The notes below the pieces were generated by a model that was given only the letters and a program-made list of their open reading frames with translations, was not told the DNA's origin and did not search any database. A stretch of DNA of 32,000 nucleotides from Promethearchaeota archaeon (GTDB lineage: Archaea; Asgardarchaeota; Lokiarchaeia; Sigyniarchaeales; SOKP01): assembly GCA_030606485.1 (NCBI GenBank), contig JAUWGH010000005.1, positions 300,001-332,000 of the forward strand, given 5' to 3'. The position numbers and the translations under genes are program-made. Below, one piece after another: positions 2,408-13,226 of this stretch. The number at the start of each line of letters is the position of its first letter. Position 1 is the first letter of the stretch.

Positions 2408-2446
2408 ATTTTTTTGATTTTGTTTTTACTTCTTTTGTGATTTTTT
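2408..2446 (+). terminator. Possible oligo(T) terminator between the r-protein genes and kae1
   Basis: Several T runs directly after the rps27ae stop (ATTTTTTTGATTTTGTTTTTACTTCTTTTGTGATTTTTT). Archaeal intrinsic terminators are U-rich. Confidence 0.35.
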
Positions 2447-3461
2447 GGTGAAATTAAAAAGGAAAATTTGTTTAGGCATTGAATGTACAGCCCATACATT
2501 CGGTGTTAGTATTTTAGACTTTGATGGGAATGTGCTTAGTATTGTAAATGATACGTATATTCCAGAAACCGGTGGCTTGCATCCTCGAGAGGTCAGAGAA
2601 CATCATCTTGAATGTTTTGATAAAACTATTATAATGGCAATTACACAAGCAAATCTTTCAATAAAGGATATTAATTTAATTGCTTTTAGTCAAGGACCCG
2701 GTCTTGGTCCTGTTTTGAGAGTAGGTGCTCTTATCGTTCGATTTCTGAGTCAAAAGTTAAAAATCCCTCTAGTTGGGGTTAATCATTGTATTGGGCATAT
2801 AGAAATCGGAAGACTCAAATGTGGGGTAAAAGATCCATTAACCTTATACGTATCTGGGGGGAATACTATTATTAGTGCATTCGAATCAGAGAGATATCAA
2901 ATATTTGGGGAAACATTAGATATTGCTGTAGGTAATTTTATTGATTCATTTGCTCGAGATGCAGGATTACAACATCCAGGTGGTCCCAAGATTGAGAAAC
3001 TTGCCCAGAAGTCTAAGAAATATATTCCATTGCCATATGTTGTAAAAGGTATGGATTTATCTTTTACAGGATTATATACAGCTGCAAAAAACCTATTTAA
3101 ATCAAAAGATTACAATAGGAAATATAATTTAAGTGATATTGCTTACTCCTTGCAGGAAACTGCCTTTGCAATGCTCACGGAGGTAACTGAGAGAGCATTA
3201 GCGCATACTAATAAAACGGAGGTTTTATTGACAGGAGGGGTCGCGGCAAATAAGAGATTACAAGAAATGATTGCATATATAAGTAATGAGCACAATGCTA
3301 AATATAAAGTTGTACCCCTGAAATATGCGGGAGATAATGGTGCTATGATTGGTTGGACAGGTATATTAAAATATAAAGAGGTTGGAGCAGATGATATTGA
3401 AGATACTATGATCAATCCTAAATGGAGAATGGATAATGTAGAAATACCTTGGAGGAGTTAA
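2445..3461 (+). CDS. kae1: KEOPS N6-threonylcarbamoyltransferase Kae1/TsaD
   Basis: LGIECTAHT, FSQGPGLGP, HCIGHIE metal motif, YVSGGNT, GGVAANKRL and DNGAMI. Start is TTG at 2445 or GTG at 2448. Confidence 0.97.
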   Translation: MVKLKRKICLGIECTAHTFGVSILDFDGNVLSIVNDTYIPETGGLHPREVREHHLECFDKTIIMAITQANLSIKDINLIAFSQGPGLGPVLRVGALIVRFLSQKLKIPLVGVNHCIGHIEIGRLKCGVKDPLTLYVSGGNTIISAFESERYQIFGETLDIAVGNFIDSFARDAGLQHPGGPKIEKLAQKSKKYIPLPYVVKGMDLSFTGLYTAAKNLFKSKDYNRKYNLSDIAYSLQETAFAMLTEVTERALAHTNKTEVLLTGGVAANKRLQEMIAYISNEHNAKYKVVPLKYAGDNGAMIGWTGILKYKEVGADDIEDTMINPKWRMDNVEIPWRS

Positions 3462-3463
3462 AT

Positions 3464-4135
3464 ATGAATTATAATCCAGTAATCGATCTTGGTCGAATTA
3501 TATATAAAGGTGCGGAAGCGACCCTTTATAAAGGTAAGTGGTTTGATAAGGAGATTTTGGTGAAACATCGTATCCCTAAAAAGTATCGGATAGAAGAATT
3601 AGATAAAAAATTAAGGCGAACTCGAACAATTATAGAGGGAAAAATGCTTATTTCTATAAAGAAATGTAATGTTCCGGTCCCCCAAGTATTTGAAGTGGAT
3701 CTTAATAATAATTGGATTATTATGAAGTATATTAAAGGTCAAAAACTTAAAGATCTTATAGGAAAAATCGATAAATCTAAGAGAAAATGGTATTTTGAGC
3801 AAATTGGGAAATATATTGCATTTATGCATAAAAATGATTTTATCCATGGAGATCTTACAACATCTAATATCATTATTACAAAAAATAAAAAAATTTTCTT
3901 TGTTGATTTTGGACTTTCGACGAAATCTACAAAAACCGAAGACAAAAGCGTGGACCTACATTTAATTAAAAGGGTTTTATTAAGCACACACGGGCAATAC
4001 TTCGAAGAATGTTTTGAAAGTTTAATAAATGGCTATAAATTAGAATATGGAAGTCAATCAGATGAAATTATTGATCGAATAGAAACCATTGAAGCTAGGG
4101 GAAGGTATATTGAAAAAAATAAACGAAAAAACTAA
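3464..4135 (+). CDS. bud32: KEOPS kinase/ATPase Bud32
   Basis: KGAEATL, KHRIPKKYR, HGDLTTSN, VDFGLS and EDKSVDLHL. The ATG at 3464 is preceded by GGAGG (3451-3455) and is preferred over TTG 3449. Confidence 0.95.
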   Translation: MNYNPVIDLGRIIYKGAEATLYKGKWFDKEILVKHRIPKKYRIEELDKKLRRTRTIIEGKMLISIKKCNVPVPQVFEVDLNNNWIIMKYIKGQKLKDLIGKIDKSKRKWYFEQIGKYIAFMHKNDFIHGDLTTSNIIITKNKKIFFVDFGLSTKSTKTEDKSVDLHLIKRVLLSTHGQYFEECFESLINGYKLEYGSQSDEIIDRIETIEARGRYIEKNKRKN

Positions 4136-4748: not shown

Positions 4749-5819
4749 TTGAAAGTAATTGGAATAGACCCTGGGAGTAAAAGCTGGGATTTTTTTGGTT
4801 TAGATAATAATTCAATTTTTTTAGATACTTCAATATTAACTAAAAATTTAATGGAAGACCCAGATAAATTTTTTGAAGTAATAGATGGAGTAAAACCTTT
4901 CGATTTAATGGTCGCTCCAAGTGGATTTGGCCTACCATTAAAAAAGGTTCAAGATTTAACAGAAATGGATATGTTTCAGATCTTATTAAAGTTTAAACGA
5001 GATAAAGAAAAAAAAATAGTAGGATTAGGAGAGATTTTAAGAAGAATCAAGGTTGAAAATTATCCAAGTGTAATTGTCCCAAGCGTTAAACATTTACCAA
5101 CAGTGCCAACATATAAAAAAGTCAATAAAATAGATCTGGGAACGGCTGATAAAGTCTGCACGGCTGTTGTTGGTATTCGGGATCAAATTGAGAGTTATAA
5201 TATCACAGCAGAAAAAACAAATTTTATTCTTATTGAAATCGGATTTGGTTTTACAGCTGTTTTAGCTATTGAAAATGGACAAATTATTGATGGCATTGGT
5301 GGTTCAAATATCATGGGAATACATGCTTGTGGAAGTGTTGATGGAGAATTAGCTTATCTAATTGGGGAAATCAAAAAAAAGCATTATTATCAAGGCGGTG
5401 TAGCTTCAATTGCTGGCTATGCGAATTTAAGTCTTCAAGAAGTTGTTCAGTTAGCTAAAAAGGATGCTCAATCCAAATTAGCGATAAACGCATTTATGGA
5501 TAGTATTAAAAAAGCAACCTTTGCAATAACTTCTGCATTTTCTGATAAGAATAAGATTAAAGATATCTTATTAGCGGGAAGAGGGATTGATTTAGAGGTT
5601 ATTAAAGATGATCTTAAAAATACTTTGCACAAGATTGCAAATGTAAGAGAAATGAAAACCTATAGTCAGATTGCTAAGCGTTCAGCTCAAGGTGCAGCAT
5701 TTATTGCGGATGGCCTTCTTGGCGGAAAATTTAAACCAATAATTGACAATTTAAAATTAAAAGATTCATCAGGCTCTGTTTTGGATCATATCTATATACC
5801 ATATGAAAGAAAGGCATAA
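4749..5819 (+). CDS. DUF1464 family ASKHA (actin-like ATPase/kinase fold) protein
   Basis: N-terminal GIDPGSKSWD phosphate-1-like motif, APSGFGLP, NKIDLGTADK, EIGFGFT and C-terminal SAQGAAFIADGLLGG. TTG start. Confidence 0.75.
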   Translation: MKVIGIDPGSKSWDFFGLDNNSIFLDTSILTKNLMEDPDKFFEVIDGVKPFDLMVAPSGFGLPLKKVQDLTEMDMFQILLKFKRDKEKKIVGLGEILRRIKVENYPSVIVPSVKHLPTVPTYKKVNKIDLGTADKVCTAVVGIRDQIESYNITAEKTNFILIEIGFGFTAVLAIENGQIIDGIGGSNIMGIHACGSVDGELAYLIGEIKKKHYYQGGVASIAGYANLSLQEVVQLAKKDAQSKLAINAFMDSIKKATFAITSAFSDKNKIKDILLAGRGIDLEVIKDDLKNTLHKIANVREMKTYSQIAKRSAQGAAFIADGLLGGKFKPIIDNLKLKDSSGSVLDHIYIPYERKA

Positions 5820-5824
5820 AAGCC

Positions 5825-6391
5825 ATGGATAAGGAGAAAAGAAGTAAAATTATATGGGGAATAACAGGTTCTGGCTATTTAATTAAAGAATCAATTGATT
5901 TAATGAAGGAACTACAAAAAAAATATTCAATCGATTTTACGGTAATACTCTCGACTCAAGGAGTAGTGGTTGCAAAGTGGTATCGCCAATGGTTATATTT
6001 AAAAGAAACCATTCAAAAAGTTCAAGTTGAGAAAACTCCAAATAATCCATTTCTTGCGGGACCTCTACAGACCGGTGAATATAAAATGTTAATTGTGTGC
6101 CCTTTAAGTGCTAATTCAGCAGCAAAGATTGCTTATGGTATAGCTGACACGCTTATAACGAATTGCGTTGCACAAACAATTAAAGGTGGTGTTCCAGTTT
6201 ATTTAAATCCTTCTGACCAAGAAGATAAACCAATTGAGACTTATAGACCAAGTGGAGAAAAACTTATATTAAAGATTCGAGAAGTCGAGTTAGAAAACAT
6301 TGAAAGATTAAAAAAGATGGATGGAATTACACTTTTTTCTGATTTGAATGAAATAAAAAGAATAATTCTTGCACAAATAGAAAGTGATTAA
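5825..6391 (+). CDS. afpA: Archaeoflavoprotein AfpA family (HFCD-like FMN flavoprotein; candidate dihydromethanopterin reductase)
   Basis: WGITGSG, PFLAGPLQTGEY, PLSANSAAKIAYGIADTLITN and PSDQ. No CxxC ferredoxin insert. Confidence 0.8.
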   Translation: MDKEKRSKIIWGITGSGYLIKESIDLMKELQKKYSIDFTVILSTQGVVVAKWYRQWLYLKETIQKVQVEKTPNNPFLAGPLQTGEYKMLIVCPLSANSAAKIAYGIADTLITNCVAQTIKGGVPVYLNPSDQEDKPIETYRPSGEKLILKIREVELENIERLKKMDGITLFSDLNEIKRIILAQIESD

Positions 6392-7964
6392 TATAAACAT
6401 TTTAATAATTACTGGAATACAAAGTCTTCAAACTGCACAAAGAATTGCAAATGAAACAAAGAATCATTTTATAGATGTTCTTAAAGCTCCTATCTCCGTA
6501 TCTGCATTTTTAACCGAAGATTTAACAAACCAACTTCTTTTAGAAGAAAAATTAAATCAATATGATATTGTTCTTTTACCAGGTTTTATTCAATGGGATG
6601 CAAGTAATTTAGAAAAAAAATTTTCAATTCCTATTCGTAAAGGTCCGAGATTTTTATCAGATTTACACTCAATCTTAAAAAAAGTAGAAGATTTAAATCT
6701 ATCTAATACAATTCCTGCTTGTGATTTGTTAAAATTTTCAGGTGAAGATCAATATGAAGAAATAGTAAAAAATAGAATAGAATTTGCTCGAAAATCGATC
6801 TCTACTCATACTTTTATCATTAATGATAAATTTCCTGATAAAATTATCGGAAGAGACTTACCTCCTTTAATTATTGCCGAGATTATAAATGCACCACAAA
6901 AGAATTTTAAGCAATTAGATAGAAAAATAGAGCATTATATTTCTTCAGGAGCTGATGTGATTGATCTCGGGTGCACATCGAATAAACCGAATCCTTCAAG
7001 ACTTCAAGAAATTATTGAGTACATTAAAAGCAAATACAATATTCTATTAAGTGCAGATACTCTAAATTCAGAAGAAATTAACGCTGCTATTGATGTAGAT
7101 ATCGACTTAATATTGAGTTTAGATTATGGAAATTATGAGAATCACTTAGATGCACCTAAAAAGCTGCCTTTTGTAATTCTTCCAACTGATACAACAAAGG
7201 CAATAATGCCAAAGATACCAGAAGTTAGAATTGAACGTTTATTTGCTTTAACAGAAATTTTAAAGAAGAAAGGATTTCAAAAACTCATTTTGGATCCTCT
7301 TTTAGAAACACCAATTAATCCGGGATTTATAAACTCTATTAGTGCATATTCGTTATATAATAAGAAAGTTAAAGAAGAGAAATATAAAGAATTAGAATTT
7401 CCCTTATTTTTTGGAATTTCTAATGTTGTTGAGTTAATGGATATAGATTCTATAGGAATTAACGGGCTTTTAGCATGTATTGCCGCAGAGCTTGATATTG
7501 GTGTAATTTTTACGGTTGAACATAGTGCAAAATTATTTAACGGAGTTAATGAATTGAAGAAGGGAATTAAATTAGCATATTTATCTAAATATAAAAAAAT
7601 GCCTCCTATTAATCAAGGAATACAAATTTTTAGTGCAAAAAGTAAAAATAAAGTTGAGTTGCCACAAATAAATAGAAATCAAGCAGTAATATTAAAAGAT
7701 TCAGATGATTACTATCAACCTGATTCGAATGGTTATTTTAAAATTTATACAAACCAATATACAAATGAAATATACGTGCTTCATATTTCAAATGGTCATA
7801 ATCTTTTAAATACAATAGTTGGCAAGAATGCTGAAGATATAAGTAAAAAAATCATAAAGTTAAATCTCACTGCTGATAAATTTCATATTAATTATTTAGG
7901 GCGAGAGTTGAAGAAAGCAGAAATTTGCTTAAAATCAGGTAAATATTATATCCAAGATGAGTAA
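6384..7964 (+). CDS. Archaeal dihydropteroate synthase-related protein (pterin-binding barrel plus C-terminal DUF4346-like domain)
   Basis: IPIRKGP, IIAEI, GADVIDLG, LSADT, ILDPLL, LFFGISNVVELMDIDSIGIN and C-terminal PDSNGYFKI...HINYLGRELKKAEICL. Overlaps afpA by 8 nt. Confidence 0.85.
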   Translation: MININILIITGIQSLQTAQRIANETKNHFIDVLKAPISVSAFLTEDLTNQLLLEEKLNQYDIVLLPGFIQWDASNLEKKFSIPIRKGPRFLSDLHSILKKVEDLNLSNTIPACDLLKFSGEDQYEEIVKNRIEFARKSISTHTFIINDKFPDKIIGRDLPPLIIAEIINAPQKNFKQLDRKIEHYISSGADVIDLGCTSNKPNPSRLQEIIEYIKSKYNILLSADTLNSEEINAAIDVDIDLILSLDYGNYENHLDAPKKLPFVILPTDTTKAIMPKIPEVRIERLFALTEILKKKGFQKLILDPLLETPINPGFINSISAYSLYNKKVKEEKYKELEFPLFFGISNVVELMDIDSIGINGLLACIAAELDIGVIFTVEHSAKLFNGVNELKKGIKLAYLSKYKKMPPINQGIQIFSAKSKNKVELPQINRNQAVILKDSDDYYQPDSNGYFKIYTNQYTNEIYVLHISNGHNLLNTIVGKNAEDISKKIIKLNLTADKFHINYLGRELKKAEICLKSGKYYIQDE

Positions 7965-8146: not shown

Positions 8147-9271
8147 TCAATAATATTTTATTATATTATAAACAGTATCTCTTTGAGCTGGACGTTTTCC
8201 AGCGGATTTAATTATATTGATGATTTCCTCAGGTTTTAAATATTCACCATAATGGGCTCCTGCGCTTCTAGAAATATTTTCTTCCAATAACGTTCCAGAA
8301 AAATCATTTACACCATAATTTAATGAAATTTGAGCAAATCTTGGCCCCAGTTTAACCCAAGAACATTGAATATTATCAATATTATTATTTAAAAATATTC
8401 TTGCAACACAAAACAACTTTAAATCGTCCATACCATAAGTTGGTTTTAACGGATATTGCCTAATTTTTGAAAGCATTGGATTTTCTTTAACATATGGCAA
8501 AAGAACAAATTCTGTTATTCCACTAGTCTCTTTTTGAATGTTTCTTATTATTTCTAAATGTATCATTCTATCTTCTAAGCTTTCTATATGACCATACATT
8601 ATTGTAGATGTTGTTGGAATTTCTAATTTATGTGCGGTAGAAATAATTTCAATCCATTGCTCTGTGGTTATTTTTTTAGGGCATATAATTTTTCTTATTT
8701 CATCATTTAATATTTCTGCTGCAGTCCCTGGTATTGAGTCCAAACCAGCTTTTTTTAATTCTTTCAGCGTATCTTCGAGAGTTAAACCATTTAATTGTGT
8801 CATATAAAAAATTTCTTGTGGTGAAAAAGCATGTGCATGAATCTCAGGGGCGGTACTTTTTACCACTTTTAAAATATCTAAATAAAATTGAAAGTCAACT
8901 TTTGGATTTAACCCTCCTTGAATGCATACTTCTGTACAATTTTTATCTTTTGCTTCAAGAATTTTTTCTTTAATTTCTTCAAGTGATAATAGATAAGCTT
9001 CTTTATGATTTTTTGATACATTAAATGAACAGAATTTACAGCTACTAGTACATATATTTGTGAAATTAATGTTCCGGTTAATTACGAAAGTTACAATATT
9101 TTCTTTTTTCAGAGAACATAGATAATTTGCAACTAATTGTAGCGCTAAAAAATCATTTCCGGAACATTTTAATAACTCTAGTCCTTCAATCTTGGTTATT
9201 TCCTTGGAATTTAATGCTTTATCGAGAATCCTTTCAATTTTTGAATTAGATAATTGGTTTAACTCTACCAT
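8147..9271 (-). CDS. cofH: FO synthase subunit CofH (radical SAM)
   Basis: NRNINFTNICTSSCKFCSF (CxxxCxxC), EVCIQGG, SIPGTAAEIL, NIQCSWVKLG and EENISRSAG; adjacent to cofG. Confidence 0.9.
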   Translation of the reverse strand: MVELNQLSNSKIERILDKALNSKEITKIEGLELLKCSGNDFLALQLVANYLCSLKKENIVTFVINRNINFTNICTSSCKFCSFNVSKNHKEAYLLSLEEIKEKILEAKDKNCTEVCIQGGLNPKVDFQFYLDILKVVKSTAPEIHAHAFSPQEIFYMTQLNGLTLEDTLKELKKAGLDSIPGTAAEILNDEIRKIICPKKITTEQWIEIISTAHKLEIPTTSTIMYGHIESLEDRMIHLEIIRNIQKETSGITEFVLLPYVKENPMLSKIRQYPLKPTYGMDDLKLFCVARIFLNNNIDNIQCSWVKLGPRFAQISLNYGVNDFSGTLLEENISRSAGAHYGEYLKPEEIINIIKSAGKRPAQRDTVYNIIKYY

Positions 9272-9285
9272 GATTGAATTGATAA

Positions 9286-10392
9286 TTATGAGATATTATT
9301 ACAATAAAACTCCATCACATTATTAATTTGTGAGGACATGAAATTTTTTTTTCTAATAAATTTATCATAGATTGGTAGTCTCTCTTTCAACTCGAACCCT
9401 TCAGCTTTACAAATCTTTTTTAAATGTTCAATTTCTGGCCATGTTTTATAAGGATTTATTTCGTCTCTTGTAAATGGAGAAATACCTCCAAAATCATCTA
9501 TTCCAACTTTTAAAAATTGTTTTTCATAACCAGTAATTAAGTTTGGTGGAATCTGAATTTTTATCGAATTCTCTACTATGATTTTGGCAATTCCAGCTGT
9601 CTTGATAATATTTCCTATTGCAATTGGTGTTTTAGGATTATATCTTATATTCGGTTTTGAGATAAAATTTTGTATTATTATTTCTTGGATGTGTTCATAT
9701 TCATCATTCAATTCCTTTATAAGAAATAAATCCTTTATCCGATCAATCATACTTTCCCCTATACCTAAAAGTAAACCAGTTGTAAAAGGTATTCTTAATT
9801 TCCCGGCATTTTTAATAAATTCAATCCTTTTATCTGGTCTTTTACCGGGACTTTCTTCATGAACATTACCTTTTTTAAATAACCTAGGTTGGGAACTTTC
9901 AAGCATAAGGCCCATACTCGCGTTATAATCTTTTATTTGTTCTAATTTATCATAACTAAGATATCCTACATTCGTGTGGGGTAAAAATTCTTTAGATAAT
10001 AATAATTTGCAAATATATAACAGATAATCGAAAAATTGTTTAAATCCTCTGGATTTTAATCTTTTTTTAACTATTTGGAATTGATCTGGATGTTCTCCAG
10101 ACATTATTAAAGCTTCCTTACAATTAAGTTGATGTGCTTTGGCCATTAACTTTTTAATTTTTTTTAAATCAAACAGTGTAATAATTTCATTTTGAGTTTT
10201 CATTCTATGATTGAAGTAGCAATAAGAGCAATTATTTATGCAATAATTTGATAATGGGATGGTGAAATTTTTTGAAAATGTTATAATATCTCTTTCATCA
10301 TGTGGCAACTCATTTTTAATTTCTCTTACTTTTTTTCTTATTTCTCTTAGAGATAATTTTGCTAATCCATTTATTGCCTCTATAAAATTCAC
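9286..10392 (-). CDS. cofG: FO synthase subunit CofG (radical SAM)
   Basis: TFSKNFTIPLSNYCINNCSYC, KEALIMSGE, PHTNVG, SMGLMLES, SPGK, IPFTTGLLLGIGE, IQIPPNL, DDFGGISP and ERLPIY. Confidence 0.92.
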   Translation of the reverse strand: MNFIEAINGLAKLSLREIRKKVREIKNELPHDERDIITFSKNFTIPLSNYCINNCSYCYFNHRMKTQNEIITLFDLKKIKKLMAKAHQLNCKEALIMSGEHPDQFQIVKKRLKSRGFKQFFDYLLYICKLLLSKEFLPHTNVGYLSYDKLEQIKDYNASMGLMLESSQPRLFKKGNVHEESPGKRPDKRIEFIKNAGKLRIPFTTGLLLGIGESMIDRIKDLFLIKELNDEYEHIQEIIIQNFISKPNIRYNPKTPIAIGNIIKTAGIAKIIVENSIKIQIPPNLITGYEKQFLKVGIDDFGGISPFTRDEINPYKTWPEIEHLKKICKAEGFELKERLPIYDKFIRKKNFMSSQINNVMEFYCNNIS

Positions 10393-10394
10393 AC

Positions 10395-11054
10395 CTACGC
10401 TTTTAAATAATGAAGTACTACATAATTATCTCTTTTCAAAACGTTTTGCAGGTTGAATTTAAAACCTTCAACTATTCGCTTTACTCCTAGACCATCAACG
10501 AGTGAAACAGCGTTTTTCCCTCCAACTATTATAGGAGCAATGAAAATTCTAATCTCGTCAACTAAACAATTTTTTATCATACTCCAATTGAGAGATCCTC
10601 CTCCTTCGAGTAAAATTTTTTTAATCCCATGCTTGTATAATTCTTCCATTAATTTTTTTAAATTAACCTGTTTTCCAGAACCTGTGTTGATAAATCTAAT
10701 ATTTCTCAGTTTAGCCTTTTCCATTTTTGGTTTTAGAGCATGATCTGTTATTGCGATTATTGTGGGATAAGTCTCTAGTTTATAACTTAATACTTTTGAA
10801 GTTAAAGGAATAGAAAAGGAACTATCAACAATAACCCGAATTAATTTTGTTGGTTCGTAAAATTTTATGTGTAATTTTGGATCATCTTTTAAGATCGTAT
10901 TTTTTCCAACCATTATTGCATCATATTCGGTCCTAAGTTTATGAACTAGTTTCCAATCCTCTCCATCAGAAAATTCAGTATCACCAGTATATGTGGCAAT
11001 TTTTCCATCAATACTCATAGCACAACTCAATAAAACATATGGTTTATTTTTCAA
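10395..11054 (-). CDS. arfC: 2,5-diamino-6-(ribosylamino)-4(3H)-pyrimidinone 5'-phosphate reductase (stand-alone RibD C-terminal domain)
   Basis: KPYVLLSCAMSIDGKIAT, LRTEYDAIMVGKNTILKDDPKL, LLEGGGSLN, VDEIRIFIAPIIVGG. At 219 aa it has no N-terminal deaminase domain. Confidence 0.9.
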   Translation of the reverse strand: MKNKPYVLLSCAMSIDGKIATYTGDTEFSDGEDWKLVHKLRTEYDAIMVGKNTILKDDPKLHIKFYEPTKLIRVIVDSSFSIPLTSKVLSYKLETYPTIIAITDHALKPKMEKAKLRNIRFINTGSGKQVNLKKLMEELYKHGIKKILLEGGGSLNWSMIKNCLVDEIRIFIAPIIVGGKNAVSLVDGLGVKRIVEGFKFNLQNVLKRDNYVVLHYLKA

Positions 11055-12192
11055 AAACTACTCTCCCTTTAATATATACTTTCTTAATATTAAAACTAGT
11101 CGTTCTATGAACAGTTAAATCTAATAAATTTTTATGGTTTATTGTAAAGAAGTTTGAATCCTTAAGATTTATTAAAAAAAAATCAGCAAATTTTCCTACT
11201 GAAATTGATCCTATCTCTTTATCTAATCTAAAATTTTTTGCAGCGTTAATAGTTACCATTTTTAGTAAATCTCTCGATTTTAAGACGTAATTAGGATTCC
11301 TTATTTTTGAAACCTTATATAAATATCTCATTTCTTCAAATAAGTCTGGTCTAATTGCCATTATATTATCAGTACCAATAGAAATTTCTAATTTCATATC
11401 TAACATTTCTTTTAATGGAGGTATTCCCATCCCAAAATAACCATTACTTTGAGGGCAAATAACAATTTTTTTATTATGTTTTTTTATTTTTAATAAGTCT
11501 TGTTTATTAAAATGTGTCCCATGAATGAATACATCAATAAAATCTTCAGATAAAATGTTTTCGAGTATAATATTCTCCCTTTTAACCTCAGATATATGAG
11601 TTGCAATAATTTTATTAGTATGTGGTTTTTTATTTAAAATATTTTTAATGGTATCTCCATCAATTTTTGAACTTGATGGAAAACCAATACCATCTGCGAT
11701 GTTATAAATATCAAATACATCATCATTTTCATGCTGTCGACCTAATATCTTGAATTTAATTGGGGAATCTTTTAATGCCTTTTTTAATAATTTAATGCCT
11801 TTAATTCCAAATTCTCGAAAATCGATAAAAAATGTTATTCCATTAGATAACATTTCATTAACTGCTTCTCTAATACCTTTAATTATAAAATTTTCATCAG
11901 TATCTCTTAATAATTTGTATTTTAGACTATTAGGACCACTTACAACATCTTTAATTGGTTTATTTAAACCAAATTCTTTCCCAATACTGTCTGCAATATG
12001 AATATGACTGTTTATAAAGCCAGGAAGTAAAATTGTCTTACCTTTTCCTAAAGGATTTTTATTATTGATTTTCTCTGATTCATTAATTCCTTTAATTATG
12101 CCATTTTTTGATATTTCGATAATAACATTCTTTTTTAAATCTAAATCTTCACCAACTAAACAAAAATCAGAAAATATCTTTTTACTTACCAT
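11044..12192 (-). CDS. Amidohydrolase-superfamily metal-dependent deaminase-like protein
   Basis: LLPGFINSHIHIAD (HxH), ATHISE (HxxE), IHGTH, IGTDN and GSISVGKFADF. Its stop overlaps the arfC start by 11 nt. Confidence 0.85.
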   Translation of the reverse strand: MVSKKIFSDFCLVGEDLDLKKNVIIEISKNGIIKGINESEKINNKNPLGKGKTILLPGFINSHIHIADSIGKEFGLNKPIKDVVSGPNSLKYKLLRDTDENFIIKGIREAVNEMLSNGITFFIDFREFGIKGIKLLKKALKDSPIKFKILGRQHENDDVFDIYNIADGIGFPSSSKIDGDTIKNILNKKPHTNKIIATHISEVKRENIILENILSEDFIDVFIHGTHFNKQDLLKIKKHNKKIVICPQSNGYFGMGIPPLKEMLDMKLEISIGTDNIMAIRPDLFEEMRYLYKVSKIRNPNYVLKSRDLLKMVTINAAKNFRLDKEIGSISVGKFADFFLINLKDSNFFTINHKNLLDLTVHRTTSFNIKKVYIKGRVVFEK

Positions 12193-12251
12193 ATTTAATG
12201 TTATTAAATTATTTTTAATTATAAATATTTAAAAGGAAAATAAAAAATTAA

Positions 12252-13226
12252 GTGATAATTATTTCTAATGAATTTCGAAAAGATTTACAAGATTCCTATT
12301 CTCCTTTAGACGTAGCTATTGATAAAGTTGGTATAATTGGACTCAGAAAAAAAATAGATATAGTAAAAGGCAATTACAAATACTCATTCTACCCAAAGAT
12401 ATCAGCTTTAATTAGTCTCCCGGCAAAACAGAGAGGTATTCATATGAGTAGAACTTCTGAAACAATTGAAGAAGTAATTAATGAAGTTATTTTTAAGCCC
12501 ACTCCAACTATAGAAGTAGTCGCTGATCGGATTATAAAAAAATTATTAAAAAAGCATAAATACACTTTAAAAGTTCATGTGGAGCTTGAGGGCGATATTG
12601 TTATTCAAGTAAGAGAGACTGAGAAAAATAATGTCCAAAAATCTTATTATATAAAAACTGTAGCTAATGGAATAAAACAAGATAATGGAGAAGTTAGGTA
12701 TAAATATTTCATTGGAGTTAGCGCGGTTGGTCTTAATGTATGTCCCTGTAGTATGGAGATGAGTAGAGAATTTGTAGAAGATTTTATTAAAGCAAGAAGA
12801 GATATTAAGATTTCAGAAATTGATTTAAAAAAGTTACTGAACATTCTTCCTGTTTCATCACACAATCAAAGAGCGAAAGGAACAATTACGGTTGAGATTG
12901 ATGATGTAGATATAAACTCTATAGATATAATTGATTTGATAAATATAATTGAAAACTCTATGAGTGGTAAGATAAGTTCTGTCTTAAAACGACCTGAAGA
13001 AGCGGAATTGGTTCGAGTCGCTCATCTTAAACCTTTGTTTGCAGAAGATGCCGTAAGAGAAATGGCTAAAAATTTTATTAAAAAAGATTTTATAAATTTA
13101 AAGGATAAGTTTAGTGTAAAATTTGAAATTACTAGTTTTGAAAGCATTCACTCCTATGATGTTTTTGCTGAACTGAATACAACAATAGGAGAATTAAAAA
13201 AAATCATTAAAGATATAAAAAATTAG
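12252..13226 (+). CDS. mptA: GTP cyclohydrolase MptA (FolE2/GCYH-IB family)
   Basis: RGIHMSR, VCPC, SHNQRA, SVLKRPEE...FAEDAVR and ESIHSYD. GTG start. Confidence 0.9.
   Translation: MIIISNEFRKDLQDSYSPLDVAIDKVGIIGLRKKIDIVKGNYKYSFYPKISALISLPAKQRGIHMSRTSETIEEVINEVIFKPTPTIEVVADRIIKKLLKKHKYTLKVHVELEGDIVIQVRETEKNNVQKSYYIKTVANGIKQDNGEVRYKYFIGVSAVGLNVCPCSMEMSREFVEDFIKARRDIKISEIDLKKLLNILPVSSHNQRAKGTITVEIDDVDINSIDIIDLINIIENSMSGKISSVLKRPEEAELVRVAHLKPLFAEDAVREMAKNFIKKDFINLKDKFSVKFEITSFESIHSYDVFAELNTTIGELKKIIKDIKN

Follow-up and report, generated by a model that had tools for sequence, protein, structure and literature searches.

The 32,000-nucleotide stretch of DNA analyzed here (hereafter the window) comes from a Promethearchaeota archaeon (assembly GCA_030606485.1, contig JAUWGH010000005.1) and corresponds to C5:300001-332000 of a 3.75-Mb, 13-contig genome with a completeness score of 100%. 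It carries on the minus strand a gene encoding an amidohydrolase-fold protein of 382 amino acids, P0001 (11044..12192), hereafter named AH. We propose, with a probability of about three in four, that AH is the pyrimidine C2 deaminase in the synthesis of the common precursor of riboflavin and of 7,8-didemethyl-8-hydroxy-5-deazariboflavin (FO), and the orthologue of Methanocaldococcus jannaschii MJ0699. This role, predicted from sequence and from a structural model, is favoured because a deaminase step fits all the genomic contexts of the gene. C2 deamination is a step of archaeal riboflavin and F420 precursor synthesis that lacks a proven enzyme, and its obvious candidate family has been awaiting an assay for more than a decade. 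The new findings concern this genome in particular: an FO-only operon in a genome with no recognised GTP ring-opening enzyme.

AH is the first of four packed minus-strand genes, in the order AH, arfC, cofG and cofH. The AH stop and the TTG start of arfC share an 11-nt overlap (11044-11054), and gaps of 2 nt (10393-10394) and 14 nt (9272-9285) separate arfC from cofG and cofG from cofH. This tight coupling had been described in an earlier reading of the DNA letters (hereafter the sequence-only reading), and our inspection of the open reading frames, overlap and gaps confirmed it. That reading had also seen the reductase as a bare RibD C-terminal domain; indeed, ArfC (P0002, 219 amino acids, 10395..11054), the archaeal 2,5-diamino-6-ribosylamino-4(3H)-pyrimidinone 5'-phosphate reductase, matches RibD_C alone and scores 189.3 bits on TIGR01508 (equivalog cut-off 186.45). 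The FO synthase radical S-adenosylmethionine (radical-SAM) subunits CofG (P0003, 368 amino acids, 9286..10392) and CofH (P0004, 374 amino acids, 8147..9271), the latter using 5-amino-6-ribitylaminouracil and tyrosine, both show CxxxCxxC in translation. They also pass their equivalog cut-offs, with 393.6 bits on NF004884 (cut-off 209) and 364.2 bits on TIGR03550 for CofG, and 462.7 bits on NF005609 (cut-off 426) and 453.1 bits on TIGR03551 for CofH. The window has a G+C content of about 28%, and the nearest named homologues and loci belong to Asgard archaea.

The AH protein matches Pfam Amidohydro_1 (1.6e-45), and the Pfam search gave no match to PF00383 (dCMP_cyt_deam_1). Its top family model is NF005552 ("chlorohydrolase"), with 257.2 bits over profile positions 9-378 of 382 and a runner-up model at 106.9 bits. 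We collected 183 relatives at E <= 1e-30 among 1.84 billion cluster representatives. Across 37 aligned full-length members, H63, H65, D68, H199, E202, H224, C246, D275 and R363 are invariant, as are K72 and K91 within closer alignments of 14 and 12 members, and P0001 carries all of these residues. They include the HxH (H63/H65), HxxE (H199/E202), H224 and D275 typical of amidohydrolase deaminases, which the sequence-only reading had picked out. In a profile alignment to the solved amidohydrolase-family structure 3LNP, the HxH, the HxxE, the beta-6 His and the beta-8 Asp all fall in register. The AlphaFold2 model of P0001 (predicted local distance difference test score 92, predicted template modelling score 0.93) has cog0402 enzymes as its top fold matches, at 15-22% identity: adenosine and 5'-methylthioadenosine (MTA) deaminases, atrazine chlorohydrolase, TM0936, guanine deaminase and the isocytosine deaminase Vcz. 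P0001 thus has the make-up of a cog0402-type protein, a TIM barrel with HxH, a beta-5 His in HxxE, a beta-6 His and a beta-8 Asp. Guanine and isocytosine deaminases carry out the same 2-amino-4-oxopyrimidine chemistry. Together, the motifs, the fold matches and the 3LNP alignment mark P0001 as a predicted mononuclear-metal hydrolytic deaminase of a distinct subfamily.

The archaeal C2 deaminase counts among the steps lacking a proven enzyme, and the family of MJ0699 is the published candidate for it. Orthologues of the RibD-type deaminase are apparently missing in Archaea (Rodionova et al. 2017). From its clustering with riboflavin genes on chromosomes and its joint occurrence with them, Osterman, Overbeek and Rodionov (2010, as cited by Rodionova et al. 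2017) proposed a candidate named "PyrD", which according to Rodionova et al. 2017 was still without an experimental test. Pfeiffer and Dyall-Smith (2021) gave HVO_2483 and MJ0699 (Q58110) as the candidates and again called for experimental confirmation. Starting from a Methanotorris homologue of P0001, a homology search and cluster look-up led to a protein of 380 amino acids labelled "Uncharacterized protein MJ0699" (Q58110, "atrazine chlorohydrolase isolog"); a neighbouring cluster (M. lauensis) bears the SEED name "Pyrimidine deaminase archaeal predicted". P0001 and MJ0699 align by BLASTP over residues 12-364 with 32% identity (E 3e-51). On the strength of this homology and of the shared NF005552 model, the window gene is, by sequence comparison, a divergent Asgard member of the family already proposed for C2 deamination. 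The sequence-only reading had allowed that automated pipelines might already predict this role; the deaminase idea indeed repeats a prediction already in print (2010, 2017) and carried as a SEED annotation.

We then evaluated the gene environment of the family in 80 loci from species-representative genomes, found with a 14-sequence alignment; about 48 of them are archaeal with an AH of at least 118 bits. Directly downstream from AH, on the same strand, 42 of these loci encode ArfC. The usual operon in Thaumarchaeota and Bathyarchaeia is ribB-ribH-arfA-AH-arfC, with the variants ribB-ribC-ribH-arfA-AH (L023), arfA-AH-cofG-cofH (L058) and AH-cofG-cofH (L024) at other loci. The six Promethearchaeota loci show AH, arfC and then cofG, followed by cofH wherever the contig reaches that far, and AH loci of Methanocellales and Thermoplasmata show no clustering. 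The expectation of the sequence-only reading that orthologues lie beside arfC, rib or cof genes is therefore borne out in Asgard archaea, Thaumarchaeota and Bathyarchaeia.

The linkage was followed further in 151 Asgard genomes, where orthologues (more than 190 bits) separate cleanly from paralogues of about 450 amino acids (at most 175 bits). AH and ArfC occur together in 65 genomes, ArfC alone in three, a partial AH alone in one and neither in about 82, and 62 of the 65 pairs are direct neighbours. Since Asgard genomes are related to one another, these counts overstate the number of independent events; the pattern covers about eight families. Searches of the 151 genomes yielded no full-length RibD. 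AH stays beside ArfC whichever ring-opening enzyme accompanies it: in lineages with ArfA, in families f5 and f21, which carry RibA (16 of 17 and 6 of 7 genomes, respectively), and in at least 22 genomes with neither. These genomic tests support the view, put forward in the sequence-only reading, that AH is a non-homologous replacement of the RibD deaminase domain, as far as sequence comparison can tell.

The three exceptions to adjacency are family f11 genomes (G010, G021 and G056; 81-83% complete), in which AH, an unlinked ArfC and RibH are present, and ArfA, RibA and CofH were not found; this family may be a second lineage without a recognised GTP ring-opening enzyme. In families f7 (24 of 32 genomes) and f13 (3 of 3), RibA is present, and ArfC, an AH orthologue, RibD and RibH were not found. 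The ArfC match beside AH at G060:C109:44408-45040 holds one TGA and one TAG, and could be a pseudogene or a sequencing error.

In the proposed pathway, ArfC would reduce the ribosyl group of 2,5-diamino-6-ribosylamino-4(3H)-pyrimidinone 5'-phosphate. AH would then replace the C2 amino group of the resulting 2,5-diamino-6-ribitylamino-4(3H)-pyrimidinone 5'-phosphate with oxygen by means of a metal-bound hydroxide, the metal being held by H63, H65, H199 and D275, with E202 and H224 as putative proton shuttles. The product, 5-amino-6-ribitylaminouracil 5'-phosphate, would be dephosphorylated and condensed with tyrosine by CofH and CofG to give FO, which would be converted to F420 by the products of cofE and cofD genes located elsewhere in the genome. 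The substrate, the order of the steps and the activity of AH are inferred here from the fold, motifs, family membership, operon structure and co-occurrence described above.

Several points weigh against this assignment. P0001 scores below the curated NCBI equivalog cut-off of NF005552 (257.2 against 294 bits). Another Asgard representative, P0125, reaches 256.2 bits, MJ0699 589 bits and a Methanocellales-like member 323.5 bits, and the model appears to be tuned to euryarchaeal sequences. The Arg of the CPRxN motif (R248), found in about 90% of the family including MJ0699, is replaced by Gln in P0001, CPQSN being common to P0001 and its closest kin (64-72% identity). The gene order arfA-AH-arfC is equally compatible with a deformylase, and our search of the literature found no member of the family that had been examined biochemically or genetically. 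Lastly, this genome was found to hold no known enzyme that makes the ArfC substrate, which leaves the first step of the pathway unfilled.

The content of the genome bears directly on this last point. Whole-genome searches did not find ArfA, RibA, FolE, ArfB, RibB or RibH/RibC. The one strong creatininase-family match was considered as a candidate ArfB and rejected, as it is IolN in an inositol cluster. At that locus (L096, G000:C8:396241-399996), IolN (3-dehydro-scyllo-inosose hydrolase, 507 bits) adjoins an IolM-like dehydrogenase, suggesting that this Asgard archaeon has a gene cluster for inositol catabolism. No RibD-type deaminase domain was found elsewhere in the genome, where TIGR00326 matches ArfC only, and the single gene of cytidine deaminase (CDA) fold encodes a dCMP-deaminase/ComEB-like protein; a full-length RibD that would explain the pathway, the objection foreseen in the sequence-only reading, is thus not found in this genome. 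P0001 is the only cog0402-type deaminase. The F420 genes are complete: cofE, a gene with a nitroreductase fold like the FbiB C-terminal domain, and cofD are clustered at L108 (G000:C2:310111-313863). Here, two adjacent genes encode CofE and the FbiB C-terminal-like domain separately.

Judged by its gene content, the organism appears to make F420 but not riboflavin. With the F420 genes complete and those for riboflavin synthesis not found, the operon would serve FO and F420 only. Of the riboflavin/FO role assigned to AH in the sequence-only reading, the FO part is therefore upheld and the riboflavin part is not, for this genome. The same pattern, without riboflavin genes and without ArfA or RibA, occurs in 30 of the 41 genomes of its family (f1), many of which are 98-100% complete. 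Genera g3, g6 and g7 of the family differ in having a ribC-ribH-arfA cluster. Two other Asgard families that make FO only and lack RibH, f5 and f21, nevertheless keep RibA and so show that a ring-opening enzyme is normally required. A whole clade thus seems to produce F420 without a recognisable GTP ring-opening enzyme, and this puzzle is the point most worth following up.

MptA, present in one copy, is the sole GTP cyclohydrolase found in this genome, and its gene is the divergent neighbour of AH. This MptA-type GTP cyclohydrolase IB (324 amino acids, 12252..13226, plus strand; TIGR00294 235 bits, cut-off 220) is separated from AH by an A+T-rich spacer of 59 nt between the two start codons (12193..12251), which presumably houses putative promoters of both genes. 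At least 14 family genomes, some of them from ArfA-bearing genera, show the same head-to-head arrangement of mptA and AH. Tentatively, the family f1 genera g1, g2, g4 and g5, a clade represented by 22 genomes in the sample of the phylum and by 30 of 41 in that of the family, might make F420 without riboflavin synthesis and without a known GTP cyclohydrolase II/III or deformylase. Either the single-copy MptA would provide the 2,5-diaminopyrimidine intermediate through a side branch of the reaction it catalyses, or the deaminase with Q248 would have an added role; an enzyme of another, unrecognised kind is a further possibility.

One rival reading is that, in this ArfA-less and RibA-less clade, AH acts additionally or instead as a hydrolase of a guanine nucleotide or of an MptA intermediate, for instance by imidazole ring opening or by deamination before opening, and so supplies the missing first step. 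The absence of ArfA, RibA, FolE and ArfB from the searched genome, the lack of ArfA or RibA in 30 of 41 family genomes and the position head-to-head with mptA speak for it. So do two lineage-specific features of the protein, Q248 and a deletion of about nine residues after HxxE (around residues 205-215 of P0001), the latter found in all proteins of its Asgard family. However, most other lineages have ArfA or RibA alongside the AH orthologue, and a cyclohydrolase activity is thus not the general function of the family; the adjacency to mptA is also seen in ArfA-containing genera. To our knowledge, chemistry of this kind is without precedent in this amidohydrolase subgroup, and we regard such a role as unlikely.

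AH could also be a formamide hydrolase that substitutes for ArfB, deformylating the ArfA product ahead of the ArfC reaction. Thaumarchaeota and Bathyarchaeia (about 36 loci) and the Asgard families f4, f8 and f18 have the gene order arfA-AH-arfC, which mirrors that of the pathway. In the thaumarchaeal genomes tested, the creatininase family is represented only by generic proteins that reach 36 bits on the ArfB model NF033501 (cut-off 180). The Asgard genomes help to discriminate here: the RibA lineages f5 and f21 retain AH beside ArfC although RibA releases no formyl intermediate, and this speaks against a deformylase. At least 22 genomes without any ArfA likewise retain AH, and the invariant Glu of HxxE together with the beta-6 His is a deaminase signature in this subgroup. 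Moreover, M. jannaschii has MJ0699 as well as MJ0116, which is reportedly its characterised ArfB (Grochowski 2009). These observations make a deformylase distinctly improbable.

Least probable of all is a DadD-like 5'-deoxyadenosine, MTA or S-adenosylhomocysteine (SAH) deaminase clearing a by-product of the radical-SAM enzymes CofG and CofH: the nearest solved structures do include MTA/SAH and adenosine deaminases, and AH, the genome's only cog0402-type deaminase, does share its operon with two radical-SAM enzymes, but the conserved partner is ArfC rather than CofG/CofH, the thaumarchaeal rib operons with AH hold no radical-SAM gene, family f11 has AH and ArfC with CofH not found, P0001 misses the DadD and MTA/SAH deaminase models (NF005557 86.5 against a cut-off of 522 bits, NF012037 49 against 779, compared with 257 on NF005552), and the variable position of CPxSN is Glu in 3LNP and Arg or Gln (Q248 in P0001) in the AH family.

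Beyond the operon, the region downstream of cofH also carries cofactor-related genes. On the plus strand at 4749-7964, co-oriented and converging on cofH, lie genes for a DUF1464 protein, a PF02441 flavoprotein and a dihydropteroate synthase (DHPS)-like protein with DUF4346, which together with mptA and the operon form a pterin plus deazaflavin cofactor island. DUF1464 and DHPS-like genes are likewise close to the operon at locus L017, and a DHPS-like gene stands at the end of locus L020. Further away (2445-4135, plus strand), a Kae1/TsaD gene and a gene for a small RIO/Bud32-like kinase overlap, forming the Kae1-Bud32 pair that is usual in archaea.

Among known systems, C2 deamination of a diaminopyrimidine intermediate, the class of reaction proposed for AH, is that of the deaminase domain of bacterial RibD and fungal RIB2. 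As in RibD, AH is encoded immediately ahead of the homologous reductase; it differs in being a separate polypeptide of unrelated fold, a TIM-barrel amidohydrolase rather than a CDA fold. Unlike bacterial RibD, AH presumably acts after the reduction, the order described for fungi (Graupner 2002, in the account given by Rodionova et al. 2017). With the solved cog0402 deaminases (guanine deaminase, isocytosine deaminase Vcz, MTA/SAH deaminase TM0936 and AtzA), AH shares fold, metal ligands and catalytic residues, and guanine and isocytosine deaminases take off the same kind of 2-amino group as in the proposed reaction; AH is 15-22% identical to these enzymes, about 50-80 residues shorter, and has other residues in the substrate pocket. 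The closest system is the MJ0699/HVO_2483 family itself (NF005552; PRK07213 "chlorohydrolase"; SEED "Pyrimidine deaminase archaeal predicted"), which P0001 resembles in full-length homology, invariant residues and clustering with riboflavin/FO genes. It departs from that family in its score below the NCBI cut-off (257 against 294), in Q248 in place of Arg, in the nine-residue deletion after HxxE, and in a host genome without riboflavin synthesis.

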